Of a stretch of DNA of 32,466 nt, positions 1 through 32,039 are shown piece after piece. The notes under the pieces were generated by a model. The model did no database searches. It was not told the DNA's origin and saw nothing but the letters and a program-made list of their open reading frames with translations. Where the stretch lies: NCBI GenBank assembly GCA_018004935.1, contig JAGNBF010000014.1, positions 1 to 32,466 on the forward strand, written 5' to 3'. The stretch comes from Chloroflexota bacterium. Lineage in GTDB: Bacteria; Chloroflexota; Anaerolineae; Promineifilales; Promineifilaceae. Numbering within the stretch: position 1 is the first letter of the stretch; every line of letters begins with the position of its first letter. The position numbers and the translations under genes were made by a program.

Positions 1-314
1 AAATGAACCCATCCCCCTAGTGATTCCCCCCAGCGGGAAGGGGGAACCCTATCTACGGGCAAAATGGGGTGTAACACACCCCATTTTGCCCGCCTGGGAA
101 AACTCCCCGCCCCTGGGGGCGGGGGTGGGGGTGGGGGAAAAGCGGCTTGCTCACCAAAATGAACCCATTCCCCTAGTGATTCCCCCCAGCGGGAAGGGGG
201 AACCTAATCTATGGGCAAAATGGGGTGTAACACACCCCATTTTGCCCGCCTGGGATAACTCCCCGCTCCTGGGGGCGGGGGCGGGGGTGGGGGAAACTCC
301 GCGTAGGCAATCAC
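1..314. repeat. Tandem duplication of a ~156-bp unit (two copies, ~95% identical). Each unit contains a perfect 16-bp-stem hairpin (57-91 and 213-247) next to a G/C palindrome CCCCGCCCC-n-GGGGCGGGG. I call this 'family A'.
   Basis: Direct reading. 1-156 and 157-300 align base-for-base with a few substitutions. The hairpin is gggcaaaatggggtgt-aac-acaccccattttgccc. Confidence 0.85.
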
Positions 315-457
315 CCTATTGATACCAGGTTTGGTTTGCCGTTGACTCTGCTTCTCAGATAGAATGTCTTTATTAATGGTTGTTTTTACTCTCTGTGCCT
401 GACTGCCCACAGTATCCTTACATCTCGTATATGGCAGATCCTTGTTGAGCCAAACTT

Positions 458-1594
458 ATGTTGACACCTGAAGAAAAAACTTTGTTAGAGAAATATGTCG
501 AGAATCACACCCCAGATGCACCTTACTGGGCGCGGGTACAGATTGTTTTATTGGCAGATGCGGGATGGGCACAGGCGGATATTGCGGCAACGTTGCGGCT
601 AAGAATTACACCTGTACGTACCTGGCAACGAGCCTTTAACCGGCACCGGCTCACGGTGTTCCCGGAAACATTGTTTTTGGACACGCCCCTGTTTGCCCCT
701 ACGGAGGGAGTGGGCGAAGCAGGGCGCTGTTTGCTGGGAGAGATGCAACAGAAGGTGCAGGCCTATTGGCCCGCGGCCGCAACCTACACCGATCCTCTGG
801 CTGTACACGAATTCCGTAAAGCCATCCGTCAGTCATTTACCATTTACCGGGTCTTTGCCCCTTACTTTCTCCAGGGAACTCTGGCCCATTTCCGGCGGCG
901 CTGGCGTAAGGTGATGCGCCGTTTAGGGCGTTCGCGGGACATCACCATTTTTCTACAAGGACTAGAAACACACCTGGCCGGGGACACTTGGTCGCCGGTA
1001 GAGCGTGCCGGGTTAGAATGTTTGCGTGACGTATGGCAGGAACGGCTCGCGGCCGCAAACGCCACACTACAAACTTATCTAAACCAGGAGAAGGTGCGCC
1101 CTTTGTTAGAAAATTACGGGCAATTTCTGGCCCACGGCCAAACCAGCCTCATTTCCCCTCTGGATACGTCACCTGCTTACCAGATCCGTTTTGTGGCTCC
1201 CCGGCTCATTAACGACAAGGTTACAATGGTACGCCAACACCATCATCTCGTCACCGGGGGCACATTAGCTGAATTACATCAATTACGCATTGATTTTAAA
1301 GAACTCCGCTACACCCTGCGCTTTTTTGCGCCGCTCCTGGGGTTGCCCGTGTTATCTTGTCTGTATGTGCTAGAACAGATTCAAGATCATCTAGGCTGGC
1401 TGAATGATGCGCGTGTAGGGCTGGAACTACTGGATGAAATGCAGGGAGAAGAAACGAGTGCGGCCGCGAACCTCTATCGCGCCCTGCTTCAGGCCAGAGC
1501 CGATACATTACGCACCGAGTTCTTGCCCCTGTGGGAAAAATTTGACAGCCTGGCCTGGCGGCAAAACCTGGGCCTGGCCCTGGCACGTTTATAA
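458..1594 (+). CDS. CHAD-domain protein with an N-terminal helix-turn-helix-like segment
   Basis: 378-aa ORF. The N-terminus 'ARVQIVLLADAGWAQADIAATLRLRITPVRTWQRAFN' looks HTH-like. Two CHAD-like motifs are present: 'AVHEFRKAIRQSF' and 'LHQLRIDFKELRYTLRFFAPLLG', matching the conserved His/Arg pattern of CHAD domains. Confidence 0.55.
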   Translation: MLTPEEKTLLEKYVENHTPDAPYWARVQIVLLADAGWAQADIAATLRLRITPVRTWQRAFNRHRLTVFPETLFLDTPLFAPTEGVGEAGRCLLGEMQQKVQAYWPAAATYTDPLAVHEFRKAIRQSFTIYRVFAPYFLQGTLAHFRRRWRKVMRRLGRSRDITIFLQGLETHLAGDTWSPVERAGLECLRDVWQERLAAANATLQTYLNQEKVRPLLENYGQFLAHGQTSLISPLDTSPAYQIRFVAPRLINDKVTMVRQHHHLVTGGTLAELHQLRIDFKELRYTLRFFAPLLGLPVLSCLYVLEQIQDHLGWLNDARVGLELLDEMQGEETSAAANLYRALLQARADTLRTEFLPLWEKFDSLAWRQNLGLALARL

Positions 1595-1609
1595 TGGATG
1601 AGGTCAAAA

Positions 1610-1936
1610 ATGGGTTTTTTGCGCAAACTCTTCGGTCAAAGCAGTGAGAAAAAAGCCCCGGCAAATCCTGGCGACCCGGATGGGGTCTATTTTTATGTGC
1701 AATGTAACCGTTGCCACACCATCGTGCGGGTACGTGCTGACCGTAAGCATGATTTTAACCAGGAAGATGGGCAGTTAGTCTGGCATAAAGTCATCGTAGA
1801 TAACAAATGTTTTCAGCGGATTACCACTGTCGTTTATCTGGATAGTAATTTCAATGTCCTAAATGCAGAAATTCAGGGGGGGCAATACGTGACACCTGAA
1901 CTGTATGCGGCAACGCTGGCGAATGATCCAAAATAA
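1610..1936 (+). CDS. Small hypothetical protein containing CxxC. An alternative start lies at 1598.
   Basis: The ORF reaches the stop at 1936. The ATG at 1610 is preceded by GAGG 8 nt upstream. The protein carries 'CNRCHT...C' cysteines. I do not recognise a family. Confidence 0.4.
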   Translation: MGFLRKLFGQSSEKKAPANPGDPDGVYFYVQCNRCHTIVRVRADRKHDFNQEDGQLVWHKVIVDNKCFQRITTVVYLDSNFNVLNAEIQGGQYVTPELYAATLANDPK

Positions 1937-2017
1937 ACGGTGCGTTCATTGAAAAAAGGTAACGGTTCTTGGGGATTTCGCGGGGTACGGGCAACCCTTG
2001 GAATGGGAAAGTAAACC

Positions 2018-2491
2018 ATGACAGTTGAAGTTCGCGCCAATGCCCTGGCCTACCTGGCCGACCACCACGTGATGACGCTGGCGACGACCGGCCCGGATGG
2101 GGTATGGGCGGCCGCCGTTTTTTATGCCCATGACGGGTTTGACCTGTTTTTTCTCTCGGCAGGGCATACGCGGCATGGGCAAAATGTGGCAAAAAATGGG
2201 CACGCGGCCGCGACCATCCAGGAAGATTATCACGACTGGCCCACCATCCGGGGTATCCAGCTTGAGGGGGATGTGGAGTTGCTGGATGGGGCGGCACGGG
2301 ACGAGGCCGTTCGGCTGTATCAGGCCAAATATCCGTTTGTCTCGCCGGACAACCCGGCCATCGGCCCGGCGTTGGCGAAGGTGAACTGGTATCGGTTGCG
2401 GCCGCGGCGTCTCTACTTCATTGATAACCGCCAGGGACTGGGACATCGTGATGAAATAGAGATGAGAGGGTTAGAAACGACCCAGACCTAA
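2018..2491 (+). CDS. Pyridoxamine 5'-phosphate oxidase-like (PNPOx, split-barrel, FMN-binding) family protein
   Basis: 157-aa ORF. 'HHVMTLATTGPDGVWAAAVFYAHDGFDLFFLS' and 'YQAKYPF' are typical of the PNPOx/general-stress-protein-26 family. Confidence 0.7.
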   Translation: MTVEVRANALAYLADHHVMTLATTGPDGVWAAAVFYAHDGFDLFFLSAGHTRHGQNVAKNGHAAATIQEDYHDWPTIRGIQLEGDVELLDGAARDEAVRLYQAKYPFVSPDNPAIGPALAKVNWYRLRPRRLYFIDNRQGLGHRDEIEMRGLETTQT

Positions 2492-2526
2492 AGGTTTTCG
2501 GAAACCTTTAGGGTCTGCTTTTCATA
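2484..2526 (+). terminator. Rho-independent terminator-like hairpin overlapping the stop codon of the PNPOx-like gene
   Basis: agacctaaaggttt-tcgg-aaacctttagggtct forms a 15-bp perfect stem, followed by gcttttcat. It belongs to a hairpin family also seen at 27904-27937 and 17693-17724. Confidence 0.55.
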
Positions 2527-2640
2527 ACGACCGGGCTATGGTTACAAAAGCCGCTGGCCTGGGGTTTTAGCCCGCAGGGCTTTGTAAATTTAGCCCGGTG
2601 GTCAAACCACCGGGCGGGATAACTGAACGCTTACAAAGCA

Positions 2641-4473
2641 ATGAAACGAATACAACACCTTTCCCTTTTGTTGGTGCTTTTTTTGACAGCTTGTTTTGGG
2701 AAACAGGTCACGGTTGGGCCAATTCCTTTAGCAGTTACTCCGACCGCGGCCGCGACCCCTTTAGCAACAAGTTCGGCTGTCCCTGTGGAACCCGTGCCAA
2801 CTATTCCCCTCAACATCCCCTTTCCCACCTTTGCCCCGGATGTACCTCTTCTCCCCTCTCCCTCCAGTTCATTGGGCATTGTCGCTCAGGCAGGTGGGGC
2901 ATGGCGCCATGCCCTGATGCAGGAACCCTACGCCTATGTCTTGGGCGCACAAGAAATCATGAAGTTGAATGTGTCTATCTCTGCCCAGCCACATTGGGTG
3001 AGTCGCTATCGCTTGCCCCCGAATGATGAGTTGCATGAGATGTATCTGGTCGAGAATTGGTTGGCTGTATCGTTGGCTACCCCATCTTCTGTAAACGATT
3101 GTGATCAGGCCACCGTGGCTAAGGTATTCGACATCAGTCAGGCAAGAGAAATAAAAGAAGTCATCGGAAAGGAGAGTTGTTTCATATTGGATACGGCCTT
3201 AACGGCTAACCATTTTTACATTCTGTCGGCAGGTGAGGGCGATGCCCTACCCAGTCTGACAGTTTTTGATCTGGCGCAGGAAAATGGTTCGATTCCTGTG
3301 AATGAGATGACCTTGCCGGAATGGGAAACGGAATCGGGCCAGTTAGCCGGGGCTGTGCTCGCGGCCGCGGACAATCATCTCCTCATTGGGCAAACCACTC
3401 AAGATGGGAACATCCAACGTCTGGCCGAATATGCTCTGGATGATCCGGCCACCCCTCGGCTTGTCAACACCTACGAAGAGGGGACTGTTCCTGAAGATTG
3501 GCAACGCATGATTGAGCCAGCAGAGCTACCCTATTGTTGTTCTAACGTGACATGGGCGCGTAGTGAGGCCTATGATGTGGACATCTACCAGGGAATTCTT
3601 TACGTGATGGCGGCTGAAGGTTTACAGCTATGGCAACAACGAAACACATCTGCACTGCAAATGCTCGCCAGTTATCCTGAACTGGCCGGTATGACCACGA
3701 TGTTGGCATTGGGTGAGTACGTGATGTTGGTAGGGCCAAACGCGGCCGCGACCCAGCTCAGTTTCCACCTTTATCAACGGTCTGATCCCACCCAACCCTA
3801 CCCGATTGTCACCAGCGAACTGCCCTACCGGGGTGAATGGGTGGATTGGGTACAGGATGGACAATGGCTTTATGTGGCCGTGGCCCATGGCATTCAAATC
3901 ATCAGTCTGGAAAACCTGGTGGCACCGGTCGAAATTGCTTTTCTTTCCACCTATCCCGGTGTGCAGGCCTTCGCTGTCCACGGCGAAACCCTTGTTCTCC
4001 TCTGGCCGGATCGCCTGGAATTAGTCCAGCAAACGACTACCGATACCTGGACGACCATTTCCACCATTCCTGCTGGTGATTTGGCTTTCCAGACAAACCT
4101 GGAAGACATGAATTACGATGGGTTGTCAGCGGTGGCGGTTGTTGGAGAACATCTCATTGCGTTGAGCGATTTTATGGTAGCGGCCTTTGATATAAGCAAC
4201 CCCACAGAACCTGTTTTCATCAACCATACATATTTTGGTGCGACCGGCGGCCATTTCTTTCCGGCAGGTGAAGGGGGCGTTCTTTTGGTGGGTGAAGCCA
4301 GCGGGCCTGTTAACGAGGTGCTGGTTGGTTTGGATGTTGATGCGAACTTACTTTGGTATGAAAACTGGGCCAATAGACCTGTGCTAGAAGATTTGGTGTT
4401 AGGCGAGGATGGGTTGTTGTACGCGGCCGCGGGTGAAGATGGTCTGGTAATTCTTCAGCCTGTCGTCCCATGA
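2641..4473 (+). CDS. Lipoprotein, probably a beta-propeller with LVIVD-like repeats. Function unknown.
   Basis: The N-terminus 'MKRIQHLSLLLVLFLTAC' is a lipoprotein signal with a lipobox Cys. Recurrent motifs 'GILYVMAAEGLQLW', 'QWLYVAVAHGIQIISLENLVAP', 'HLIALSDFMVAAFDISNPTEP' and 'GLLYAAAGEDGLVILQ' resemble LVIVD-type propeller blades. Confidence 0.6.
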   Translation: MKRIQHLSLLLVLFLTACFGKQVTVGPIPLAVTPTAAATPLATSSAVPVEPVPTIPLNIPFPTFAPDVPLLPSPSSSLGIVAQAGGAWRHALMQEPYAYVLGAQEIMKLNVSISAQPHWVSRYRLPPNDELHEMYLVENWLAVSLATPSSVNDCDQATVAKVFDISQAREIKEVIGKESCFILDTALTANHFYILSAGEGDALPSLTVFDLAQENGSIPVNEMTLPEWETESGQLAGAVLAAADNHLLIGQTTQDGNIQRLAEYALDDPATPRLVNTYEEGTVPEDWQRMIEPAELPYCCSNVTWARSEAYDVDIYQGILYVMAAEGLQLWQQRNTSALQMLASYPELAGMTTMLALGEYVMLVGPNAAATQLSFHLYQRSDPTQPYPIVTSELPYRGEWVDWVQDGQWLYVAVAHGIQIISLENLVAPVEIAFLSTYPGVQAFAVHGETLVLLWPDRLELVQQTTTDTWTTISTIPAGDLAFQTNLEDMNYDGLSAVAVVGEHLIALSDFMVAAFDISNPTEPVFINHTYFGATGGHFFPAGEGGVLLVGEASGPVNEVLVGLDVDANLLWYENWANRPVLEDLVLGEDGLLYAAAGEDGLVILQPVVP

Positions 4474-4475
4474 TG

Positions 4476-5168
4476 TTAATCTTGAGGTGGTTCCAGGTTT
4501 TGTTTGAGTAGGGCCAGGAACGTTTCGTTGCCCAACATTTCACCTAGAGCCAGGTAGGGGTTAAGGCTTTCGGTTTGCCATAACCAGTGCGGCCGCAAAC
4601 GAAATCCCTTTAGCACTTCAGATTCCACCCACTCATCCTCATCCATACCAAACAACTGGTATCGCCCCGTCTCATCCAACCGGTAAAAATCTGCCCGTTG
4701 TTTCCCTGCACGTGGATCAATGATCCAATATTCCGTGATACCTGCCTGCTCAAACTCCCGGAATTTATCCCGCCGATCTCGTTGTACGCTCTCAGTGGAA
4801 ATAATTTCAATGACCAAATCTGCGGGGCCATCAAGCCAATCTTCTTTCAGACGATGTAAGTTCGCTTGAAGCACAAAGAAAATATCTGGCTGGCGGATAG
4901 ATTGACCGGAGCGGAGCCGCATTTCCGTTGGGGCCGACCACACTTCGCCCAATTTGAAGAGTTTTATGAATTGTTCAATCAAATGAAAGAGGCGATTGGA
5001 AATGCGTTGATGTTTAATTTTGACGGGCATAAACGGAATAACCTCCCCATCCACCCATTCGGCAAGCGTATCTTCATCCGCCCAGGCTAAAAACTCTTCA
5101 TAGCTCATGCGGTTATTTTTAGGCTGATTGACTTTGGCTTTAGGAAGCAAAACCTTTGAAACTGTCAT
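4476..5168 (-). CDS. Uma2-family (DUF820) putative PD-(D/E)XK endonuclease
   Basis: The 230-aa ORF has the characteristic Uma2 layout: '...EWVDGEV...', 'QPDIFFV', 'PDLVIEIIS', 'KFREFEQAGITEYWIIDP'. GAGG lies 9 nt upstream of the ATG at 5168. Confidence 0.8.
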   Translation of the reverse strand: MTVSKVLLPKAKVNQPKNNRMSYEEFLAWADEDTLAEWVDGEVIPFMPVKIKHQRISNRLFHLIEQFIKLFKLGEVWSAPTEMRLRSGQSIRQPDIFFVLQANLHRLKEDWLDGPADLVIEIISTESVQRDRRDKFREFEQAGITEYWIIDPRAGKQRADFYRLDETGRYQLFGMDEDEWVESEVLKGFRLRPHWLWQTESLNPYLALGEMLGNETFLALLKQNLEPPQD

Positions 5169-5187
5169 AACATTGCCTCAATAAAAT

Positions 5188-5318
5188 ATTTCGGGGTCTT
5201 TGGGATTTCAGGGGGTTGACACCATCTGTAGGGGCAACCCTTGTGGTTTGCCCTCGGCGGGGCAGGCACAAGGCCAGCCCCTACATGTAGCCGCACCCCA
5301 CGAATTCCGAAAGAACCA
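5188..5318. repeat. Family-B palindromic MITE-like element (~120 bp). Other copies are at 13690-13812, 17995-18095 and 28190-28300. Partial copies are at 1966-2010 and 21617-21660.
   Basis: The shared ends are ggttcttggg(g/a)atttc(a/g)(g/t)ggggt ... accccgcgaattc(t/c)gaaagaacc. The interior has paired hairpins (gggcaacc/ggttgccc and ggcaggcacaagg/ccttgtg). The interior of the 13690 copy is inverted relative to the 5188 copy. Confidence 0.8.
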
Positions 5319-5361
5319 TATTTCGACCTTGTTTCTTGAGTCATTTTAGCATATTTAGAGG

Positions 5362-7500
5362 TTATAAGGCGTGACGATTGCCCATGACACTGACATCGTA
5401 CCCAGGTAACTGAGCCACCGCCTGACGAAATGTGCCATCGTGCAGGAGATCAAGTAGCGGCCGCAACAAATCCCCTTCCCCATGTTCCGCTGGTATCACC
5501 AGGTCGTACCGCTCCTGCGCCAGGGGGACAAAATCCAGTTGCAGGGCACGCGCGGCCGCAACCACCCCCAACCCCATGTCCGCCGTACCGCTGGAAATCG
5601 CGGCCGCGACCGCCAGATGGGTGTACTCTTCCCGCTCATACCCGGTCACCATCTCCGGCACGATGCCCCGTTGGCCTAACTCATAATCCAACAACACCCG
5701 CGTCCCCGCCCCCCTCTGCCGATTTACTAACCGGATGTCCGGGCGGGCAGAGTCTTCCCACCCCTTGATCCCTTTCGGGTTGCCCGGTGGGATGATCCAG
5801 CCTTGCTCCCGCCCCACCAGGGTGATCAGCATCACCTTTTGCCCCGGCAGGTAACGGTGGATGTACGAAACGTTGTATTCACCCGTCGCCGGGTCGAGCA
5901 GGTGGGAGCCAGCCAGATGGGCTTCGCCGCGCCGTAAGGCCACCAGCCCCCCCAGACTACCCACATTAGCGGAGCTGAGTCTGCGGCCGCGTTCGGCCAA
6001 AAATTGGGCCATTAAATCCAGCGTCAAATCGTGACTGCCAATGCACAAAATCGTCCGCTCAATCTCCGGCACGGTGCGATACAGGTGAACCGTCACCTGC
6101 GCCCCCGCCTCTTCTCCTTCGCTAAACCGGGGAATCCGCACGATGCCATCCGCCCGCACCAACGAGGTAATCACCCCCGCCCCCCGGCTGATGGGCGTCG
6201 CCAACACCTTCTCCCCCACCTTACCCACCGCCACCCGCACAAAATCATCATCCCCGGTGTGAGAAACCACCTTTCGTGTCAGGGTCGCCGGGAGTGTGGG
6301 CGGCTCATAGGCCGGTTGCCCCTGCCAACGGGCCAGCAACGGCTCGACGAATATCTCCCCGGTCAGTGCGGCACTGACGGGATAGCCGGGCACGCCAATG
6401 ATGGGGAGCGAGTGGGCGAGTGGGCGAGTGGGCGAGTAGGCGACTGATTCACCGTGTCTCCGCGTCGCCGCGTCCCCCTCTCGCCGCGTCCCCGCGTCCC
6501 CGCGTCTCTCGATCATCCCTAAAATAACTGGATGCCCCGGCCTGACCGCCACCCCATGCACCAGGAGTTGGCCTAGCTCTTGCACGACGTGGGCGGTGTA
6601 ATCTTTGCTCCCGGCGGATGAACCAGCATTGACGAGGATGAGGTCGTGGGATGCGGCCGCGTCTTTCACCGCCGCCACAATCTTCTCCCACTCATCCGGC
6701 ACAATCGGCCAACGGGTGGGAATGCCCCCCCACTGCTCCACCTGCCCGGCCAGGACAAGGGAGTTGAATTCGATGATTTGGCCGGGGGAAAGGGCCGAGT
6801 GGTGAGTGCTGAGTGCTGAGTCAGGAGAGTGAGAGACTGAGAGACTGGAGACTGGAGACTGTTCGCTGTTCACTGTCAACTGTTCACGGCTAACTGCTTC
6901 CACACTGACCAACTCTGACCCGGTGGGGATGATGGCGACCCGCGGCCGCGTATAAACCGTGACCATCGCATGACCAGAACCGGCCAAGGCTCCCAGGTCA
7001 ACCGGGCGCAGTTTGTGGTTGGCGGGCAGAACCAGTTCCGTGGCGACCATATCCTCGCCCAGCGGCCGCACATGGGTCCAGGGGGCCAGGCTGGCCCGAA
7101 TCTCGATGGCCGATGCGCCGATTTTTTGGGTGTGTTCAATCATTACCACCGTATCAGCCCAGATGGGCAGGGGCGCACCGGTATTGACCGCCTGCGCCGG
7201 GCGCACCCCTGGGGCAATATCTTCCCACGCTTCGGCCAGGGTCAACTGGAGGGGATTTGTCTCGGTGGCCTCGTGGGTGTCACGGGCACGCAGGGCGTAG
7301 CCATCCATGGCACTGGCGTGGTAATGGGGGGCGGAAATTCTGGCCCACACCGGCTCGGCGGTTACGCGGCCCAACGCCTGGGTGAGCGGGATGGTTTCTG
7401 TGCCGAGGGGTTGCCAGAGAGAGGCAGATTGCAACGCGGCCGCGAACCGGCGCCACGCTTCGTCAAGGGGTAAATCTTCGAGGTAAATGTTTCGTTTCAT
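5362..7500 (-). CDS. moeA: Molybdopterin molybdenumtransferase (MoeA) fused to a C-terminal PBP-like (molybdate/tungstate-binding-type) domain. It carries two low-complexity insertions.
   Basis: MoeA motifs are 'ISAPHYHASAMDGYA', 'NTGAPLP...ADTVVMIEHT', 'PRVAIIPTGSELV' and 'LILVNAGSSAGSKDYT...VAVRPGHP'. The C-terminal ~300 aa look PBP-like. I chose the start at the 7500 ATG (MKRNIYLEDLPL). The ORF track extends the frame to 7569. Confidence 0.8.
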   Translation of the reverse strand: MKRNIYLEDLPLDEAWRRFAAALQSASLWQPLGTETIPLTQALGRVTAEPVWARISAPHYHASAMDGYALRARDTHEATETNPLQLTLAEAWEDIAPGVRPAQAVNTGAPLPIWADTVVMIEHTQKIGASAIEIRASLAPWTHVRPLGEDMVATELVLPANHKLRPVDLGALAGSGHAMVTVYTRPRVAIIPTGSELVSVEAVSREQLTVNSEQSPVSSLSVSHSPDSALSTHHSALSPGQIIEFNSLVLAGQVEQWGGIPTRWPIVPDEWEKIVAAVKDAAASHDLILVNAGSSAGSKDYTAHVVQELGQLLVHGVAVRPGHPVILGMIERRGDAGTRREGDAATRRHGESVAYSPTRPLAHSLPIIGVPGYPVSAALTGEIFVEPLLARWQGQPAYEPPTLPATLTRKVVSHTGDDDFVRVAVGKVGEKVLATPISRGAGVITSLVRADGIVRIPRFSEGEEAGAQVTVHLYRTVPEIERTILCIGSHDLTLDLMAQFLAERGRRLSSANVGSLGGLVALRRGEAHLAGSHLLDPATGEYNVSYIHRYLPGQKVMLITLVGREQGWIIPPGNPKGIKGWEDSARPDIRLVNRQRGAGTRVLLDYELGQRGIVPEMVTGYEREEYTHLAVAAAISSGTADMGLGVVAAARALQLDFVPLAQERYDLVIPAEHGEGDLLRPLLDLLHDGTFRQAVAQLPGYDVSVMGNRHAL
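6405..6510. repeat. Microsatellite-like repeats inside moeA: (gagtgggc)x3-4 followed by cgcgtcccc-type repeats
   Basis: Direct reading of 'gagtgggcgagtgggcgagtgggcgagtaggc' and 'cgcgtcgccgcgtccccctctcgccgcgtccccgcgtccccgcgtc'. On the minus strand they encode '...ERRGDAGTRREGDAATRRHGESVAYSPTRPLAHSLP...'. Confidence 0.8.
6797..6862. repeat. Microsatellite-like 7-nt repeats inside moeA: (gagtgct)x2, (gagactg)x3-4
   Basis: Direct reading. On the minus strand they encode the low-complexity segment 'SEQSPVSSLSVSHSPDSALSTHHSALSP', inserted between MoeA motifs 'IIPTGSELVSV' and 'GQIIEFNS'. Confidence 0.8.
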
Positions 7501-7758
7501 GGTGTATTGTATGATGTGTATGGCGTGGTACGTATTGGGTGGTGCGTAGGTGAGCCTAATACGCACCACGCAACATTGTACCTCATTCCCCTTGTTTCGG
7601 GGTTCTGGACGGGGCTGATCCCCGCAATTCTCAATTTAACCAACGGCTAAAACCGTTGCCCACCAAAAGCACACCCGAAAAATGGCCCAACCCGTAGAAC
7701 AGCCTTTCAGGCTGTTCGCCCTTTCGAGAAAACAAAAGCGGCAATCGCCCTGTCCATC

Positions 7759-7786
7759 TTGACACGCGGCCGCAACCCCTTATAAT
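7759..7786 (+). promoter_or_regulatory. Near-consensus sigma70 promoter: TTGACA, 16-nt spacer, TATAAT
   Basis: cTTGACAcgcggccgcaaccccTTATAATtcc. It is oriented toward the thrS leader. Confidence 0.55.
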
Positions 7787-8066
7787 TCCTCCTACATAGA
7801 CAAAACGTTGACTGGGACATGTTGGGTCTGCCCCCCGTGTTAGAGAGTGATGGGCCATAGGCTGAAAGCCCTCACCACCAAGACAGAACCAATACCCCCC
7901 AGGAGTGATTCTCAGAACGTGAACAGTCAACAATAAATAGTTGATATTCCACCAATAAGAGAATCCGGGTTACTCCGTTATCAGTTGCAATGAGAGTAAA
8001 CAACACAGCTACACAAACCCCAGTGTTTCAACTCACTGTTCACTGCCAACGGCTCACTGTTTACTA

Positions 8067-8123
8067 AATTTGGGTGGAACCGCGAGACGCCATCGCCCCA
8101 ATACCGGGGTGGTGGCGTTTTTT
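8067..8123 (+). promoter_or_regulatory. T-box riboswitch-like element (T-box motif plus terminator hairpin and U-tract) in the thrS leader
   Basis: aatttGGGTGGAACCGCGag matches the T-box consensus AGGGUGGNACCGCG. The variable N is A, as in Thr-specific T-boxes that pair with a UCCA acceptor end. It is followed by gacgccatcgcccc...ggggtggtggcg and then TTTTTT. The Stem I / specifier region was not resolved. Confidence 0.45.
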
Positions 8124-8427
8124 ATTTCCTATTCGACTCTGGCGAATTTGTACACAACCTCTGGACGTAGCACAGCCTTTCCAGGCGGTGTGTTCTCTGG
8201 TAAAACAAAAAACGCCAATGACGAGTTTCCTAGAAAAAAAGGGAACTCCAGGAACTGAGAAAAACTCATAGGATTGGAGATTAAATAACTTGAACATTTG
8301 CTGTGGCCGGTCTCCTGACCGTGCCACTTCCAGCGAACAAGTTATTTAGTTCTCCTTCCATAGGAACTCACCCCAGTTCCCATGAGTTTCCAGAGTTCCT
8401 ATGAGTTCCCACGTTCAGGAGTTTTCC

Positions 8428-10254
8428 ATGTCCGAAACAAACATCCCCTACGAACAGTCCGACCTGTACCGCATCCGCCACTCGGCCGCTCATGTCATGG
8501 CCGAGGCGGTCAAAGAATTTTTCCCGGAAGTAAAACTGGCAATCGGGCCACCCATCGAAGATGGTTTTTACTACGACTTCGACCTGGGCAAAGACGAAAA
8601 CGGCAAACCACGCACCTTCTCGCCCGAAGATTTGGAGAAGATCGAAGCCAAATTCAAAGATTTACTCAAACAAAACGCCAAATTCGAGCAGTCCACCATG
8701 ACGGTGGAGCAGGCGTTAGCCCATTTTGTTGATCAGCCATACAAACTAGAACTCATCCGCGACCTGGCGGCGGGCAAAGTGGATGAGATGGGCAACACTA
8801 CGGCCGTGCCTGCCCAGGAAGTCGGTATCTACCAACACCGGCAATTCACAGACTTGTGCCGGGGGCCACATGTCGGCTACACATCCCAGGTCAAGGCCAA
8901 CGCCGTGAAAATTTTGCGGGCCAGCGGGGCCTACTGGCGCGGCGATGAGAAAAACCCACAACTCCAGCGCATCTACGGTACGGCCTGGCCGAACAAAGTC
9001 GAATTAGACGAATATTTGCAACGGCTAGAAGAAGCCCGCAACCGAGATCACCGTAAATTGGGCAAACAACTGGGACTATTCCACATCTCCTCCCTGGTCG
9101 GTTCCGGGTTGCCCTTGTGGTTGCCCAAAGGAGCCGTTCTGCGCGAAGAGTTGGAGAGGTTTTTGCGTCAGGCACAACTAGAAAGAGGGTATCTGCCCGT
9201 CATCACGCCCCACATCGGCAAATTGGATTTGTACATTACGAGTGGGCATTATCCCTACTACAAAGATAGCCAGTACACGCCCATTGATGTGGACGGGGAA
9301 CAGTTCATGCTCAAGCCCATGAACTGCCCCCATCACATCGAAATCTACAAAAGCGAACCCCGTAGTTACCGGGATTTGCCCCTGCGTCTGGCCGAATTTG
9401 GCACGGTCTACCGCTATGAGCAGAGTGGTGAGCTAAATGGCCTGACGCGGGTGCGTGGTTTCACGGTAGATGACTCTCACCTGTTTGTCACGCTAGAACA
9501 GCTTCAGGAAGAGTTCATCGGCGTCGTCAGCCTCATCCAGCACGTGTTTAACACGATGGGCTTCCATGATTTCCGCGCCCGCCTGGGGACGAATGATCCT
9601 AACAGCGACAAATACGCTGGAACGCCGGAGATGTGGGCACAGGGCATTCACGCCATTCAGCAAGCCGCCGACAAAGTGGGCATGAATTACAAAGTAGAAG
9701 CCGGTGAAGCCGCGTTCTATGGGCCAAAACTGGACTTCATCTTCCGTGATGTGTTGAAGCGGGAATGGCAACTGGGTACGGTGCAGGTGGACTTCTTGTT
9801 GCCGCAACGGTTTGACCTGGAGTATACGGGTGAAGATGGGCAAAAACATCGCCCAGTGATGATCCATCGTGCCCCGTTTGGCAGTATGGAACGGTTTATC
9901 GGTATCCTTATTGAACATTTCAATGGGGCGTTCCCGCTATGGCTCTCACCAGTGCAGGCGATGATTGTCCCGATTACGGATCGGCATAATGAGTATGCCC
10001 GGCAAGTGGCAAATGAGTTGCGGGTCGCCGGTCTGCGGGTGCAGGTGGATGAGAGTGATGATCGGATGAACAAGAAAATCCGCAATGCCCAGTTGTTGAA
10101 GATTCCGTACATGCTGGTTATTGGGGATAAGGAAGCGGAAGCCAATGCGGTAGCTGTTCGGACGCGTACGGGTGAAGATCGGGGCGCGGTGTCTGTGGCC
10201 GAGTTCAAGGCTCAGGCGGTGAACCTGATTACCACGAAGGGTATGGAGTTGTGA
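8428..10254 (+). CDS. thrS: Threonine--tRNA ligase (ThrRS) lacking the N-terminal TGS domain
   Basis: 'RHSAAHVMAEAV' is the editing-domain HxxxH motif. It also has a class II catalytic core and a C-terminal anticodon-binding domain. AGGAG lies 6 nt upstream of the ATG at 8428. The ORF track begins at 8401 in the same frame. Confidence 0.9.
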   Translation: MSETNIPYEQSDLYRIRHSAAHVMAEAVKEFFPEVKLAIGPPIEDGFYYDFDLGKDENGKPRTFSPEDLEKIEAKFKDLLKQNAKFEQSTMTVEQALAHFVDQPYKLELIRDLAAGKVDEMGNTTAVPAQEVGIYQHRQFTDLCRGPHVGYTSQVKANAVKILRASGAYWRGDEKNPQLQRIYGTAWPNKVELDEYLQRLEEARNRDHRKLGKQLGLFHISSLVGSGLPLWLPKGAVLREELERFLRQAQLERGYLPVITPHIGKLDLYITSGHYPYYKDSQYTPIDVDGEQFMLKPMNCPHHIEIYKSEPRSYRDLPLRLAEFGTVYRYEQSGELNGLTRVRGFTVDDSHLFVTLEQLQEEFIGVVSLIQHVFNTMGFHDFRARLGTNDPNSDKYAGTPEMWAQGIHAIQQAADKVGMNYKVEAGEAAFYGPKLDFIFRDVLKREWQLGTVQVDFLLPQRFDLEYTGEDGQKHRPVMIHRAPFGSMERFIGILIEHFNGAFPLWLSPVQAMIVPITDRHNEYARQVANELRVAGLRVQVDESDDRMNKKIRNAQLLKIPYMLVIGDKEAEANAVAVRTRTGEDRGAVSVAEFKAQAVNLITTKGMEL

Positions 10255-10563
10255 GCGCCTGTTGGGTTAGGTTGTGCGCCGTTTTTGTGGTTATGAAGTG
10301 GGATGGGCGGGAGATGGGTCACAGTGCATAAGGCCTGAGGGCTTGCTCGCAAAATAATGTTTGAGTTTGCTGTGGCCGATCTCTCGACCGAGCCACCCCA
10401 GGGGCAGGAAACTTTTTTGGGTGCCGTTTTCCGGGGCGAAAGTCCCGAAAAACGGCACTGTTGAACGCCCCTTCTCGTGGGGAATTGTAGGGGGATAAGT
10501 GTCTTTTGTGGTGTGGGCCAGCACCCTGATAGCCTGAACTTAGCGAAGGTTAGCCCTGTATAG

Positions 10564-10612
10564 AAAAAACAGGGGTAACGGCGGACTGTTGTTCGCCGTT
10601 ACCCCTGTTTTT
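10564..10612. terminator. Bidirectional rho-independent terminator between convergent thrS and csp
   Basis: aaaaaa-caggggtaacggcg-gactgttgtt-cgccgttacccctg-ttttt forms a 14-bp perfect stem flanked by an A-run and a T-run. Confidence 0.75.
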
Positions 10613-10641
10613 AAATGGGCCGGAAGGCAGGTTTTCCTGTC

Positions 10642-10881
10642 TTAACCGAATAAACCACGTTTAGGCTTCACTTCTTGGGCCTGGGGGCCTTTGCCTTTGT
10701 CTATTTCCAGATACTCAACCTGGTCTCCCTCGTAAAGGTTCCGATAGCCGTCCCCTTCGATGGCAGAGTAATGGACAAAAACCTCACCACCGCCTTCTTC
10801 TGATTCAATAAAGCCATAACCCTTCATCCGACTGAACCATTTGACTATACCACGTTTCCGAGACACAGATGTTACCTCCAC
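10642..10881 (-). CDS. Cold-shock protein (CspA family, S1-like cold-shock domain)
   Basis: 'GIVKWFSRMKGYGFI' and 'FVHYSAI' are the RNP-1/RNP-2-like motifs of Csp proteins. The product is 79 aa. Confidence 0.85.
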   Translation of the reverse strand: MEVTSVSRKRGIVKWFSRMKGYGFIESEEGGGEVFVHYSAIEGDGYRNLYEGDQVEYLEIDKGKGPQAQEVKPKRGLFG

Positions 10882-11187
10882 TACGATTGAGTTACCGATA
10901 CAAGAAAGAAAGAAGCTCGTCTGCGGCCGCAGGGTGTTGAGCTAGTTACCAATACTGTTGTTTACCATTACATCGTCAGAACTGCTAACAATCTAACATG
11001 AGGCCAGGGGGTAAGTCAATCGTTGCGAATGAGAATAAACGTATCCTTCACACATAGCGTGAGTAGAGCGTGAAGGGTTTACTCATAGCAATGGGGGGGT
11101 GTTTAGCCCTATTATCAGCGGTTAAATGATGGTTATCTGAGCAGAAAATATATTTCCAATATTGCTTTGTGAAAAAAATCACCTAGT

Positions 11188-11216
11188 TTGACAGGGGCTA
11201 AAAAAAAGAATATGAT
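11188..11216 (+). promoter_or_regulatory. Near-consensus sigma70 promoter: TTGACA, 17-nt spacer, TATGAT
   Basis: tTTGACAggggctaaaaaaaagaaTATGATgc. It lies ~390 nt upstream of the flotillin start. Confidence 0.4.
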
Positions 11217-11602
11217 GCTTTACGTTCTCTGCTTAAGGTGTGAACGAATAAATAATGCGTGGCATAAACACACCTGTGGAGGCGAAACATGATCCACAAC
11301 AGTTCCCCCCCCTGACGCTTAATCCCCTTATTCACAGCAACTGCATGGACGTAATACGTCAGACAGGTTTCTTTGAAACTGTCACGATTGCGCTTTGCCT
11401 GTCTGCTTCTTAATTGGACGTAACGATACACGTCAAAAACCGGGTTTTTCTTTTGTAGGGCATGAACTGGCCCAAGCAAAAACCTGGTTTCTCCAGCGAG
11501 GCTGTATAGTTACATCGAAACATTGTTTTTGTTAGCCAACCTGATTTCAGAGCGCAACTGGTAGGCTCCTTTTTAGTGTCATGCGCCCTAAGGTGTAAGA
11601 AA

Positions 11603-13508: not shown

Positions 13509-13519
13509 TTCGCTTCTAT

Positions 13520-13680
13520 GTAACTGTTCAGTTGTGTCAATTCAGCTACCATCCCGCCCGGTCGTTTTACGACTGGCTATGGCGACAAAGGCCGTTGACC
13601 TGGTGTTTTAGCTTGTAGGGCTTCGTCCATTGAGTCTGGCAGTTTGATCGCCGGGCGGGGTAACTGAACACGTATACCTG
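13520..13680. repeat. Family-C MITE-like element (~140-160 bp) with terminal inverted repeats (TIRs) GTAACTGTTCAGTT...AACTGAACRCKTAC. Other copies are at 2525-2640, 16895-17040 and 24780-24920. Fragments are at 18215-18260, 30275-30320 and 31500-31560.
   Basis: The shared core is cccgcccggtcgttttacgaccgggcta(c/t)ggttacaaaggccg(c/t)tggcctgg(g/t)gttttagcccgca.ggc...agcccggcggtttgaccgccgggc.ggataactgaacgcttaca. Internal perfect stems are ccggtcg/cgaccgg and gcccggcgg/ccgccgggc. Confidence 0.8.
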
Positions 13681-13823
13681 TATACACAAAAGTCGGGGTT
13701 TTTGGGAATTCAGGGGGTTGACACCAGATGTACGGGCTGGCCTTGTGCCTGCCCCGTGTAGGACAACCGCAAAGGTTGCCCGTATCCCACGAAATCCGGA
13801 AGACCCAAAAGTCGTAAATCCCT

Positions 13824-14531: not shown

Positions 14532-14639
14532 TGTTCCTCATTCCTCCATTTTCCTGTGTGATCAGGAAATGCACCACCTACTTTAACACAAATTCTATGA
14601 CCTATGCCAATTTTCTTGCAGAAATTGTAAGGGTGATGG

Positions 14640-15115
14640 TCTACGCGGATTTCCCCCACCCCTAACCCCGCCCCCAGGGGCGGGGAACTTTTAGTGGGCG
14701 TTTTTCGCGGGCATTCGCCCGCGAAAAACGCCCACATTGTTTTTTCCCCTTCCTGCGGGGAATGGTTAGGGGGATGGATTATGGGGCGTGCGGATTTTCT
14801 CTGCCTCTAATCCCGATCCCAGGGGCGGGGAACTTTTAGTGGCCGTTTTTCGCGGGCATTCGCCCGCGAAAAACGCCCACATTGTGTTTTTCCCTTCCTG
14901 CGGGGAATGGTTAGGGGGATGGGTTATGGGGCGTGCAGATTTTCTCTGCCTCTAATCCCGATCCCAGGGGCGGGGAACTTTTAGTGGGCGTTTTTTCCCC
15001 TTCCTGCGGGGAATGGTTAGGGGGATGGGTTATGGGGCGTGCGGATTTTCTCTGCCTCTAATCCCGATCCCAGGGGCGGGGAACTTTTAGTGGGCGTTTT
15101 TCCCTTCCTGCCGGG
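14640..15115. repeat. Array of 4 tandem family-A units (~146, 144, 114 bp, then a truncated unit). Units 1-2 carry a 17-bp-stem hairpin. Units 3-4 have it precisely deleted.
   Basis: Each unit begins ccaggggcggggaactttt. The hairpin is gggcgtttttcgcgggc-att-gcccgcgaaaaacgccc at 14696-14733 and 14841-14878. Units 3-4 read ...gggcgttttttcccc..., lacking the hairpin. Confidence 0.85.
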
Positions 15116-15146
15116 TGTTTGTTGAACGGGTAAGGAATGTTCGTGT

Positions 15147-16880: not shown

Positions 16881-17053
16881 AAACTTTTTAACCCATTACG
16901 TAACTACGTAACCGTTCCGTTGTGTCAATTCATCCGCCAGCCCACCGGTCGTTTTACGATCGGGTTATCGTTACAAAGGCCGTTGGCCTGGCTTTTTAGC
17001 CCGCAGGGCTTCGTCGGGGCTTCGACAAGTTCAGGCCTCAAGAGCGTTAGTCG

Positions 17054-17413
17054 TTACCTCATTACCAAATAAACAAGAACCCCAATGCCCATTACCAGAA
17101 CACCCGCTGTGCCCAACAGGTCAAACAGGGTTTTATCTTGGGTGCGATCTTGTCGCCTTTCATCGTAGCGGGCTTTGTCCGTTTCTTCAAGACCCCGGCG
17201 GGTACCGGCTCGCCCCGGCAAAGGTTCGGAAGCTAATACCGCACCTAAGACGGTTGTTAAACTGCCACTGATGAGTAATGCAAAGGCCAGACTAGTTTCA
17301 TCTTGCCAACCGGCCAACCAACAAATAAGCCAGGTTAGAGCGACGACGGCGATCACAATGAAGATAACTCTTTGCACGAACTGGGAAGGTTGCATTTTGG
17401 GGTTAGTGCGCAT
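17054..17413 (-). CDS. Small hypothetical membrane protein (3 predicted TM helices) upstream of the dynamin-like gene
   Basis: 119-aa ORF with hydrophobic segments and a charged middle region. There is no obvious SD. An alternative start M lies at 17395. Confidence 0.35.
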   Translation of the reverse strand: MRTNPKMQPSQFVQRVIFIVIAVVALTWLICWLAGWQDETSLAFALLISGSLTTVLGAVLASEPLPGRAGTRRGLEETDKARYDERRQDRTQDKTLFDLLGTAGVLVMGIGVLVYLVMR

Positions 17414-17817
17414 TTGTTTGTGCCATAGGGGTACACATTTATATAGTTTCCTTTTCCCCTTTAGCTACAAAATCATTGTTGATTAAATAGCCTTGTGTTA
17501 TGATGCACCATCCTTGAAAAAGGGTGTTTTATGGGGATCCATAGACAGCAATCACACTGGTGTGCGTGTTGGAGAAACTGTTTTTCTCGCTGATTGCTGT
17601 TTAACCAGGAAACTCATCCCTGTGCCAGGGTATTGTGCCCTTCTCATACTATTCTCTCCAGGTGAGTGCCTGAAAATAACTTCCCAGTTTTGATCTGACA
17701 GGTTTCCGAAAATCTGTACAGTCTGGGTGAAACTTATTTTGAACCTACTGAAAAAAGGAACGTTCCTTTTTCCGTAAGTTCATTTTTGGGCGATTACGTA
17801 TCTTCTCAATATTTCGG

Positions 17818-17860
17818 GGTAAACGAGGCCTGAGCTTGTCGAAGCCTCGGGTTGCCTTCG
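17818..17860. repeat. Family-D hairpin repeat (16-20-bp stem, 'gagcttgtcgaag...cttcgacaagctc'). Other copies are at 21526-21576 and 28008-28050. A half-copy is at 17008-17040.
   Basis: cctgagcttgtcgaag-cctcgggttgc-cttcgacaagctcagg is a perfect 16-bp stem. The 21526 copy has a 20-bp stem with 1 mismatch. Confidence 0.8.
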
Positions 17861-18483
17861 ACAAGCTCAGGCAACGGCTTACAAGCCCAGGCAACAGGCT
17901 TAGCAGTTACGAGGTATGGTTCAAAAGTCGAGATACGGTGCTTAACAATATGTAGGGCGATTTGGTAAAGGGGGTGTTTCATTTTGGTTGAAAGGAAGAA
18001 AATAAGTTCTTTGGGGTTTCGTGGGGTACGGGCAACCCTTGTGGTTGCCCCACACGGGGTAGGCACAAGGCCAGCCCGTACATCTGCTGTCAACCCCTTA
18101 ATTCTCAGAGACTTATTATTCAACTCATTTGAAACATACCCTGTGCCTAATCGTCCTACATATTTGTAAAGCAGACCTGAACCATGCCGTTACGAAAATA
18201 CGCGATTACTTATAAAGCCAAGTTTACGACCGGGTAACGGTTTGGACAAGCCGCAAGCACTATTTCTCTGGGTGATTTGTTTTTTGTGGACGGGCAAGGG
18301 AAAGCCATGAACGGTGATCTGGCTTAAATTGGTTGTTTCAGGGTCTTTTCAATCAGGAGATGGGTGACTTTGTATTTGCCCACCAGGGCGATTTGAGGGG
18401 CGCGTTTCTTCTGGTTGCGAAGATGCTTGTTTTAGTTTTGTTTGTTGTTGAAAAGAACAGTATTCACGATGGAGGAGGTTTTT

Positions 18484-21163: not shown

Positions 21164-21826
21164 GTATTCATCGCAAAATATAGCGCCTAAGAAAAAGATG
21201 TTGGGTTCTTTTGGAATTGGCGGTGGGTGGCACGGTCAGGAGATCCGCCACAGCAAAGGAAGACCAGCGACAGCAGGGGGGAAATTCAATCACGCTCAGA
21301 TAAGTTCCCGGCCCGCAGGGGCGGGGTTAGGGCGGGGGTTACTGGGGCCAATTGCCCCTGAGACTTGTCATAAAACGCTAATGACTACTTTCGTAATAGT
21401 GTCCTAGATTTCTGGATTCAGCACACTTTTCTTATGCTATAATGCCCAGCGAGGGGAATTCACGGCCTTTACATTGGTTTACCTCTGGTAAATTGTTATT
21501 ATTTTTCGTAACTATACACGTCCTCGAGGGCTGAGCTTGTCGAAGGTGGAGCCGGGCTTCGACAAACTCAGCCCTCGCTATACCCCACCTGTATAGATAC
21601 TATTTTTCAATCATAACGGTAAAGCCAGCGGTTCTTGGGAATTCAGGGGGTTGTCCGTACCCCTCGAAACCCCCAAGCGACTTACGCGATTGCTGGAGCG
21701 AGTCTTCTGACTGTGTTTTTGTGGCTGGGTGGGGACACAGCCACAGCCCGTTAAGTTCTATTCTCAATAAATATTCCTGAGCCAGCCGAAGCCTTCTTCC
21801 TGGCCCTCTCTGAAGCGAACCATACG

Positions 21827-24739: not shown

Positions 24740-24936
24740 ATCAGAGCAAGAAAAAGGTAAGCGTTCAGTCATATAAATTTATCCGCCAGACCCGCCCGGA
24801 CGTAAAACGACCGGGCTACGGTTACAAAGGCCGCTGGCCTGGGGTTTTAGCCCGCATGGCTTTATATGTTTAGCCCGGCGGTTTGACCGCCGGGTAGGAT
24901 AACTGAACGCTTACAGAAAAAGAAAAGGAATACACC

Positions 24937-27937: not shown

Positions 27938-28653
27938 TGTCAGGTCTTGACGGAATTTAATCTTTTACAGGCCCTAAGTGGAAAACAAGGTAACGACTAA
28001 ACCCGTTGCCTGAGCTTGTCGAAGGCAAACGGGCTTCGACAAGCTCGGCCCTGGAGAGGGTTAGTTGTTACAAAACAAGAACGAAAGTTCGCTATTTTAC
28101 CACAAATCAGGAGTACAGGCAGGGCGATCACCTACTCGTCTAGCAATTCTCAATTCAACCAACGGTTATGGAGATTAAACAAATTGGGTTCTTGGGGATT
28201 TCATGGGGTACGGGCAACCCTTGTGGTTGCCCCACACGAGGCAGGCACAAGGCCAACCCCTACATTTAGCCCCACCCCGCGAATTCTGAAAGAACCCAAA
28301 TTATACTTACTTGAGTTTAGAGTTCAGAGCCAAAGCTAGAGGGTTTTCCAGAGTAATTTCCTCTTGCTCTCTCCTCTCGCTCTAAACTCCGGTACTTACC
28401 ACGGTCATAAAATGACATTTTGTTGGCGGCAACTGCTGAGTAAGCCTGGGCAGAAGACCCATCCCCCTACCCCTTTCCAAAGGGAAGGGGGGAAACCGCA
28501 CCAGAAATAGTTCCCCGCCCCTGGGGGCGGGGAACTTTTGAAGAGCCGTTTTTTGCAGGCATTCGCCCGCGAAAAACGGCCCCAATTGCCCTACATGCGG
28601 TGAGCACCCTGGTCGCTGAGTTTGGCAAAGGCGATACCTGTGGTTTGGTTGTT

Positions 28654-31504: not shown

Positions 31505-32039
31505 ACATTATCGGGTGAGCAAACCCGCCCGGCGGTCAAACCGCCAGGCTTTCAGTAGTCGTGCAAAAATAACGTGGGTGGCACGGTCAGGCGACCGGCC
31601 ACAGCAAAGCGTTCAGTTAAATTCGGGTACCGTGTTGATTCGCCCATCCCCCTACGATTCCTGCCGAGAAGGGAGAAATACCAGGAGTGCCGGTTTTCGA
31701 GCGCACCGCCGCGCTCGAAAACCGGCACATTAAAAAGTTCCCCGCCTCTGGGGCAGGGTTAGGGGTGGGAGAAAATCCACGTATGCAATTGCCCCACAAA
31801 CCAGAGAAAATTACCGGGCAGGGGCTGTATTTTGTGTTAGAGTTGAGCAGAAAAAGCTGGTCAGCCAGGAAGCTATAGCTTTCAAGAAAAAGATTTTGGG
31901 TTTGTAGTAACCGCTTTAGCGGTCCCACGCTGGACGGCTAAAGCCGTTACTACCAACCAAAACCCCAAATGATTTTCTGAACATCTATAAGAAGCTGGTC
32001 AGCATTTCAGCCAGTCAGCACTTCGGCTGACAAGCCGAC

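Follow-up and report, generated by a model that had tools for sequence, protein, structure and literature searches.

The 32.5-kb window (the whole stretch of DNA analysed), from a Chloroflexota (Ca. Promineifilaceae) MAG, contains four full copies (A–D) and two defective copies (E and F) of a short palindromic element. This count comes from reading and aligning the six sites, and it agrees with a sequence-only reading that had named four full and two partial copies there. All six copies are intergenic, situated between long open reading frames, and they take every orientation relative to the flanking genes. The full copies are 110–124 bp long, and the family members collected span 98–125 bp. 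A seventh copy (G) and a core without a shell (H) are located just outside the window, with H 5.3 kb to its left in the same genome. The window matches JAGNCW010000008.1, a contig of GCA_018004095.1 whose proteins NCBI lists under a 'Chloroflexi bacterium' MAG, and genomes nearly identical to it carry the label Ca. Promineifilaceae.

Copies of the element in the window

Each full copy has two arms, which together form a shell, and a core of two hairpins between them (hp1 and hp2; primes mark the reversed complement). The arms are asymmetric, with a 12–13-nt segment in one or both of them. The L1 arm reads GGGGG-TTGACACCAGATG-TA, the short arm S is without that 13-nt segment (ATTTCGYGGGG-TA), and arms L2 and L3 have other 12-nt segments.

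Copy A (124 bp; 5194..5317, + strand) has an L1 left arm containing TTGACACCATCT, a core with hp1 followed by hp2, and an L2' right arm. It is flanked by an 8-bp target-site duplication, ATATTTCG, at 5186..5193 on the left and 5318–5325 on the right (8/8 match), and has a 100% identical counterpart in a sister genome locus (L040). A copy had been noted here with its start at 5188; the copy is real, but it begins at 5194, since positions 5186–5193 are the target duplication. Copy B (111 bp; 13696..13806, + strand) has an L1 left arm, the opposite core arrangement of hp2' followed by hp1' (13730–13785), a short S' right arm, and GTAC feet, and its 8-bp duplication, AAAAGTCG, is also perfect (left 13688..13695, right 13807–13814; 8/8 match). 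Copy C (110 bp; 18005..18114, + strand) has an S arm, a core of hp1 and hp2 (18026–18081) and an L1' arm, which is the B configuration turned over, with 89% complementarity to B; its ends are degenerate, and no target-site duplication is recognisable in its flanks. Copy D (110 bp; 28187..28296, + strand) has an S arm, a core of hp1 and hp2 (28208–28263) and an L2' arm, and only a shifted CAAATT repeat is seen in its flanks.

The two remaining copies are incomplete. Copy E (1964..2000, + strand) is truncated: beyond its S arm it retains hairpin 1 only in its 5' half, and it stops 18 nt short of the ATG that starts the 2018–2491 gene. Copy F (21630..21681, + strand) is internally deleted: its L1 arm runs as far as GGTTG, where it is fused to the GGTTG-CCCGTA end of hairpin 1' followed by an S' arm. 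It was considered as an empty shell, i.e. an unoccupied target, and this was rejected; F is better explained as a B-type copy with a putative deletion between two direct repeats of GGTTG, and when it is reconstructed by eye against B, it matches over 24 nt on the left and at 18/28 positions on the right.

The density of these sequences is far above expectation. The core 19-mer with up to three mismatches has five matches in the window where 0.02 are expected, one of which, at 9107 within the gene for threonyl-tRNA synthetase (ThrRS), is due to chance, and the 16-nt end has seven matches where 0.6 are expected. Short repeat families are abundant in the window, which has neither tRNA genes nor, at gathering score, any Rfam family.

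The repeat also generates open reading frames. Three frames suspected of being spurious products of the repeat are confirmed at 13905–13570 (− strand), 17969–18166 (+ strand) and 28001–28336 (+ strand), and they have in common the peptide GFRG[VI]RAT[LF][VA]V..H..GTRP.

Terminal repeats and target-site duplications

The shell ends are imperfect terminal inverted repeats of ~22–40 nt (5'-GGYTCTTKGGGAWTTC...GGGG...), with GGYTCTTKGGGAWTTC present at both ends in inverted orientation; the inverted-repeat-like ends with a GAATTC, previously recognised from the letters, are thus present. Target-site duplications were sought among 46 non-redundant full elements with both flanks, which were derived from genomes and metagenomes by a species-representative core scan and a metagenome-contig scan for the TTGACACC arm (the latter pattern required the L1 arm and foot and gives a biased view of the configurations). 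The 8-nt flanks form a perfect direct repeat in 17 of the 46 and match at 7/8 positions in another 10, and shuffled (mismatched) left and right flank pairs reach at least 7/8 in 0.7%. The signal is present at offset 0 only and is lost when the right flank is moved by one base, the ninth flank base matches at approximately chance level (4/17), and the duplicated target sites are 76% A+T.

With inverted ends and a fixed 8-bp target duplication across the family, the shell is a true MITE. It has other traits of this class, being short and without coding capacity (its open frames are only read-through of the repeat), as well as dispersed and multicopy, with six copies in the window and one just outside. 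The element had been called MITE-like, with terminal repeats and target duplications proposed as the check; both are found (the duplications are perfect at A and B and at least 7/8 in 27 of the 46 family members), and the designation is now stronger than the letters of the window could make it. The duplications suggest that the copies arrived by transposition and that the shell is, or has been, mobile.

The ends resemble published ones of the ISL3 family, with inverted repeats such as GGCTCTTCGCGG... (ISArsp7) and GGGTATCCGGAATTTCTGGTTGAT (ISPst2), and 8-bp direct repeats such as TTTTTAAA (PMC6305408 Table 3). In being small, non-coding, multicopy and intergenic, with imperfect terminal inverted repeats starting GG(C/G)T.. 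and an exact, AT-rich 8-bp duplication, the element is like bacterial MITEs derived from DDE insertion sequences, and here most like the ISL3 family. The family ends, GGCTCTTTGGGAATTC..., fit the ISL3-type inverted repeat pattern (~15–39 bp, starting with GG and often GGCTCTT), and the left inverted repeat of ISPst2 aligns by eye with the L1 arm at ~17/24 positions. Eight-bp direct repeats are also made by families other than ISL3 and are not exclusive to it. From the GGCTCTT-type ends, the internal GGAATT-C..GGTTGA similarity and the 8-bp length of the duplication, ISL3 is the best candidate family for the mobilising transposase. A DDE-type, ISL3-like transposase acting in trans would recognise the shell ends and integrate the unit into AT-rich sites, and an 8-bp staggered cut would give rise to the 8-bp duplication around the shell.

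No autonomous partner is evident in the ~400 kb of fetched loci, which contain no pair of ends 260–4000 bp apart with a target-site duplication, and their gene lists include no DDE_Tnp_ISL3 transposase gene. A blastn search of PLSDB plasmids with the whole element gives no match, and IMG/VR viral contigs have no match to the core or shell patterns. The element differs from DDE-derived MITEs in having asymmetric arms, with the 12–13-nt segment in one or both, and in its interior, which is a REP doublet of an HUH system and not the deletion remnant of a transposase gene.

The GTAG-REP doublet core

The core consensus is GTAG-GGGCAACC-CTTGT-GGTTGCCC, a spacer, and GGGCAGGC-ACAAG-GCC(T/A)GCCC-CTAC. 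The core of copy A (5228..5284, + strand), a module that is also present in RAYT genes, reads GTAG-GGGCAACC/CTTGT/GGTT(T)GCCC, spacer, GGGCAGGC/ACAAG/GCCAGCCC-CTAC. Each half has a GTAG tetranucleotide directly at an 8-bp GC-rich hairpin, and the two halves are arranged head-to-head as a heterodimer with a spacer of 4–15 nt between the two REPs. A GTAG foot directly before a GC-rich hairpin defines the GTAG-tagged REP superfamily (PMC3733652), and the core resembles the described GTAG-REPs and REPINs in having a 5' GT[AG]G foot immediately next to a GC-rich hairpin whose base consists of three G-C pairs (PMC3733652, PMC6006769, PMC5581495). As in GTAG-REP dimers, the arrangement is an inverted, head-to-head heterodimer, and such dimers are sometimes inside longer palindromes. 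The feet are GTAG on both sides in copy A and in most family members. Of the four feet in B and C, three are GTAC and the fourth is ATAC, and D has GTAC on the left, such that three of the four full window copies differ from GTAG-REPs in bearing GTAC feet. This doublet, common to many phyla and to RAYT genes, was missed by the sequence-only reading and is the main key to the element.

Under energy minimisation each copy takes the form of a single long, imperfect hairpin (z-scores from −2.2 to −7.1). However, covariation across 34 aligned cores, taken from MITEs, from RAYT genes and from other phyla, rejects the long hairpin and favours two local ones. With the foot and two local hairpins 92.9% of cells are paired, 11 of 20 pairs are changed on both sides and 0 of 500 shuffles are equal (flipped rows among the 34 cores inflate the cell counts), whereas the single long hairpin gives 83.1% pairing, below all 500 shuffles, with its variable stem positions unpaired in 25–31 of the 34 sequences. 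Independent stem variants include AACC/GGTT, GACC/GGTC and GCAC/GTGC as well as AGGC/GCCT, GGGT/ACCC and AGAC/GTCT. The two interior hairpins noticed earlier are therefore each conserved as structure and kept mutually different, and DNA or RNA hairpins fit alike. Rfam 15 has no match at the gathering threshold, and a permissive search returns only chance-level hairpins (E ≥0.08). The earlier suggestion of alternative RNA folds finds no support, as there is no Rfam match and the covariation favours one architecture.

The core is widely distributed. In a scan of one genome per species with a pattern requiring only AACCYTTGYGG...AGGCACAAGG, the core occurs in at least seven phyla among the matches listed, with the feet GTAGGGGC and GCCCCTAC and the 3' stem halves intact even though these were not required. 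It is present in MAGs of Chloroflexota, Gammaproteobacteria, Holophagales, Nitrospirota/Magnetobacteriaceae, Desulfobacterota, Poribacteria and Sumerlaeota. A shell of the window type surrounds it at only three loci among the matches listed, two in Ca. Trichofilum aggregatum (Promineifilaceae; L004 and L011) and one in a Chloroflexota MAG (L017), and a Gammaproteobacteria MAG has the same core inside a different palindromic shell. The flanks of 33 core copies in other genomes are unrelated right up to GTAG/CTAC, and these copies have no flanking direct repeat, the 8-mers matching at chance level with a maximum of 5/8. A literature search found no paper with the literal core sequences.

RAYT genes themselves carry the core. 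At locus L018 a RAYT gene (3095–3733, − strand; 188 aa) contains it in frame between the HUH motif (IMPNYIHGILLI) and the Y helix (LGKIVGSFKS). The predicted protein matches NCBIfam REP_Tyr_transpos (E = 9e-17; 61 bits, below the 80-bit curated cut-off) and has a weak match to Pfam Y1_Tnp. Its motifs are PNYIH, WQRNYYEH and YIINNP; a second protein (L113) has PNHIH, WQRNYYEH and YIVNNP, and a third (L112) YIEGNP. Almost all of the 120 homologues listed, from at least 8000, have a VGA...APT insert between HUH and Y, which is the translation of GTAGGGGC...GCCCCTAC. Many of these inserts (VGATLVVA...RAGTRPAPT) correspond to the window core and others (VGAGLVPA...GATTRVAPT) to the core reversed, and in-frame cores of both orientations are confirmed in the DNA of L112 and L113. 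A RAYT query matches several of the repeat-made frames at E values of 1e-3 to 1e-6.

These features agree with TnpA_REP subclass 2.4 (Bertels' RAYT group 4), which has the motifs NH[IFV]H, WQ and YIxNNP (Quentin et al. 2018, PMC6006769). For the same subclass 'double foot' REPs and frame-keeping REP insertions between HUH and Y of tnpA_REP are described, and REP insertion inside RAYT genes is thus an already published feature (PMC6006769). Group 4 is frequent among Cyanobacteria, Chlorobia and Caldilineae, with a scattered distribution over 17 classes (Bertels et al. 2017, PMC5581495), and the core is like the REPs associated with subclass 2.4 in being scattered over many phyla, including Chloroflexi/Caldilineae. 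The RAYT link is known from genes of other genomes (L018, L112, L113) and not from the genome of the window.

The element is probably a composite, non-coding mobile element of two layers, with a MITE shell around a GTAG-REP doublet. The inner layer, bounded exactly by GTAG...CTAC, would be a REPIN-like or 'double-foot' REP module, and the core is a candidate substrate, present or past, for a subclass-2.4 RAYT (HUH/Y1). It may have entered the centre of the MITE, by capture or by insertion, and presumably spread as cargo thereafter, and in the Promineifilaceae genome the doublet would have spread mostly in this manner. This differs from the described GTAG-REPs and REPINs in that the doublet lies inside a shell with terminal inverted repeats and 8-bp duplications and would be spread as the cargo of another transposon.

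An identical core, delimited exactly by GTAG and CTAC, is found in unrelated settings across at least seven phyla as well as in RAYT genes, and this argues against the core always having been part of the MITE, with its differences and orientations arising in place by compensatory mutation or template switching and the likeness to RAYT-associated REPs reflecting seeding by the MITE or convergence. Some shells also hold clearly different REPs, with other loops or a single hairpin (L058, L064, L077). Such an origin is unlikely, although no core-less shell was found among the collected elements or fetched loci, several core variants are only a few compensatory changes apart, and two elements (L095 and L086) have in-place changes of the template-switch type.

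A second alternative is that the whole 110–125-bp unit is one REPIN, with the arms as its extension, moved only by a RAYT (HUH/Y1) through single-strand 'peel and paste'. Three observations would fit: an inverted REP doublet of typical form occupies the centre, the unit when folded as a whole forms a long hairpin, and REP dimers within longer conserved palindromes are reported from Anabaena variabilis and Halothiobacillus (Di Nocera et al. 2013, PMC3733652). Y1 transposition is without target duplication, yet exact 8-bp duplications of variable sequence are present here and core-only copies elsewhere are without them. Moreover, the arms are absent from most of the core-holding genomes among the core-scan matches listed, and the same arms enclose REPs of more than one type and, at L075 1981, an interior that is not a REP at all. 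Movement as a single REPIN is accordingly quite improbable.

Core orientation and spread of the element

Within the two-layer element the core is present in both orientations relative to the arms. The configurations are L1-hp1.hp2-L2' in copies A and G, L1-hp1.hp2-S' in L017, L1-hp2'.hp1'-S' in B, C and L004, and S-hp1.hp2-L2' in D. The interior of B was previously described as reversed relative to that of A with the flanks unchanged, and alignment agrees with this: the left arms match at 30/34 positions in the same orientation, and the cores at 47/57 as reverse complements versus 37/57 directly. The pair L017 and L074 is similar, with arm matches of 31/34 and 18/21 in the same orientation versus 15/34 and 17/34 after turning over one of the two, and core matches of 50/58 as reverse complements versus 40/58 directly. 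Opposite arm and core orientations are also seen between A and B, A and L051, and L062 and L066, the last of these in a different core lineage, and the two core orientations are about equally common among L1-oriented elements. B was also considered as simply the whole element turned over, which explains B versus C and D but fails for B versus A or L017 on account of the arm types. On these comparisons, reversal of the core relative to the arms arose several times independently in the family. Smaller rearrangements occur as well, with the loop of one hairpin alone reversed in L095 and a chimeric hairpin in L086.

The window copies have the same sequence and orientation in every sister-genome locus covering them (the genomes are 99.2–99.8% identical), with copy F differing by a 2-nt indel only. 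No presence/absence, empty-site or orientation polymorphism is seen in GCA_963853475.1, GCA_037045095.1, GCA_020054605.1 or ERZ22666005, and the neighbourhood gene lists include no recombinase gene. Large indels among the sister genomes involve only another repeat family and an unrelated IS66-family insertion. The flip-flop proposed for the interior thus stands as regards the two orientations and their several independent origins, but an active switch here is not supported, given the identical copies in sister loci and the lack of a recombinase gene nearby.

A programmed invertible DNA switch, or a structured ncRNA family with alternative folds for each interior orientation, is very improbable: both orientations exist, folding energies are strong (z −2.2 to −7.1) and the two hairpins covary, but all six copies are in one orientation and identical in every covering sister-genome locus, no recombinase is in the neighbourhood, the copies face either way relative to flanking genes, Rfam has no matching family, no promoter-like or terminator-like site is called on any copy between 13000 and 29000, and the target duplications indicate arrival by transposition. 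The TTGACA in the L1 arm was considered as a −35 box and rejected, as no promoter-like site is called on the copies between these coordinates. The element appears to be without a host function.

Minute inversions at hairpins and template switching at quasi-palindromes are known from chloroplast non-coding regions and E. coli quasipalindromes. The reversals here are similar in that a segment between short inverted repeats is found in both orientations and recurrently, and the loop flip of L095 and the arm-to-arm conversion of L086 are of the same kind. They differ in that the flipped unit is a 45–50-nt double hairpin that is a candidate HUH-enzyme substrate, so that an enzymatic route is equally possible. 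Hairpin template switching or recombination between the inverted feet could account for the reversals and has about an even chance of being the correct route; RAYT excision and re-insertion is a somewhat less probable one, and other causes take the remainder. Recurrent reversal of a doublet relative to its surroundings is absent from the accounts of described REPs in PMC3733652, PMC6006769 and PMC5581495.

A more far-reaching version of the two-layer element is possible but doubtful. The REP doublet would be an independently mobile, orientation-indifferent cassette that inserts precisely at the apex of palindromes, such as the centre of an ISL3-like MITE and the HUH–Y loop of its own transposase gene, and rides the MITE by means of a second, unrelated DDE transposase. 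If so, this would be hitch-hiking with two transposases, and it would explain both the near-identical REPs in distant phyla and the presence of both orientations.

Both layers are known kinds of selfish DNA, and what is new is that one is packaged in the other, which is well documented here, and that the doublet has been reversed recurrently. The combination of the two layers is an uncommon one. In practical terms, the repeat-made frames (VGATLVVA...GTRPAPT) mirror peptides of real RAYT proteins and lead to spurious gene calls and false homology. How REPs and REPINs spread is still little understood; the usual description has them inherited vertically and relying on a RAYT present in single copy. 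A REP doublet inside a cut-and-duplicate MITE would have a second route of amplification, and with the naturally occurring copies of this family one could ask whether the centres of palindromes are places where RAYTs insert REP doublets or flip them.

Interiors between family-B ends and RAYT genes in other genomes

The ends of the family-B MITE also enclose other interiors in loci from other genomes and metagenomes (L075 1981–2087, L077 1640–1738, L064 1708–1806 and L085 1570–1667). In one case the interior consists of a non-REP cargo that contains GTGAAACGTGA repeats, and the remaining interiors are single 'double-foot' hairpins (GTAGGGGCGGTGTGCGCACTGCCCCTGC; GTAGGGGCACAGCGCGCTGTGCCCCTTC). 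Within the window, the threonyl-tRNA synthetase gene contains GGGTTGCCCTTGTGGTTGCCC at 9097–9126 (peptide GLPLWLP), which is similar to hairpin 1 of the family-B core but has no feet, partner or arms, and was judged a chance match.

In a contig of GCA_049700935.1, the genes for the S and R subunits of a type I restriction-modification system belong to one operon and have a group-4 gene for a REP-associated tyrosine transposase (RAYT) between them (L113 6001–6633); NCBI assigns the RAYT protein to Roseiflexus castenholzii. The in-frame REP insert of this RAYT gene is internally expanded, with four copies of GGGGCAACCATATCC that give rise to GATIS repeats. At a second RAYT locus, a copy of hairpin 2 of the family-B core and the following ATTGGGGG are situated directly upstream of the start codon (L112 5960–6000), where ATTGGGGG matches the gene's own internal sequence past the insert, and a different GTAG...CTAC hairpin is found downstream (L112 6705–6800). 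These flanking sequences suggest either a partial duplication of the L112 RAYT gene or its flanking by REPs.

Small hairpins and tandem arrays

The window contains a third repeat family, an approximately 28-nt hairpin GTGGCACGGTCAGGAGACCGGCCACAGC (8286–8327, 10366–10398, 21223–21258 and 31574–31619). Its foot is GTGG, and it is therefore possibly another REP type. An intergenic region immediately to the right of the window (about 4.5–4.9 kb in L042–L044) contains one, one to two, and three copies of this hairpin in three sister genomes, and its copy number there is the sole repeat-linked polymorphism seen.

A tandem array of ~145-nt units (14594–15132) belongs to a repeat family distinct from family B, and contains the palindromes CCCCGCCCCCAGGGGCGGGG and GGGCGTTTTTCGCGGGCATTCGCCCGCGAAAAACGCCC within its units. 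Dispersed partial copies are located at 1–296 (where the unit is ~156 nt), 21302–21338, 28488–28584 and 31725–31794, and the length of the array varies among the sister genomes. Tandem repeats of 216 nt, composed of sub-units of 101 and 115 nt, occupy 32063–32466 and include TTTCTCAGGAGTTCCCCATG...GGCACACCAAGAGGGATGAAAAT, with an RBS-like AGGAG followed by ATG in every sub-unit; this array runs past the end of the window and is variable in copy number in the sister genomes.

An IS66-family insertion in a sister genome

Window positions 1–11594 are 99.965% rather than 100% identical to the deposited contig L041 (~4 differences in 11.6 kb). Only one sister genome (GCA_037045095.1) has a 1.5-kb IS66-family insertion (L048 3931–5433), at a site corresponding to about 17443–17447 of the window. 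It encodes DUF6444 and DDE_Tnp_IS66, has ends GTAACTATGCAGGTG with CTAT on its flanks, adjoins a 119-aa gene, and is unrelated to family B.

Clustering of repeats in intergenic spacers

Copies of the dispersed families D2, D10 and D16/I7/I17 are located at window positions 13516–13698, 2526–2657, 16904–17015 and 24806–24937, with more at 17017–17057, 17824–17870, 21504–21577 and 28031–28075. One of these copies ends exactly where copy B, a full family-B MITE, starts, and the repeats thus cluster or nest within the same intergenic spacers.
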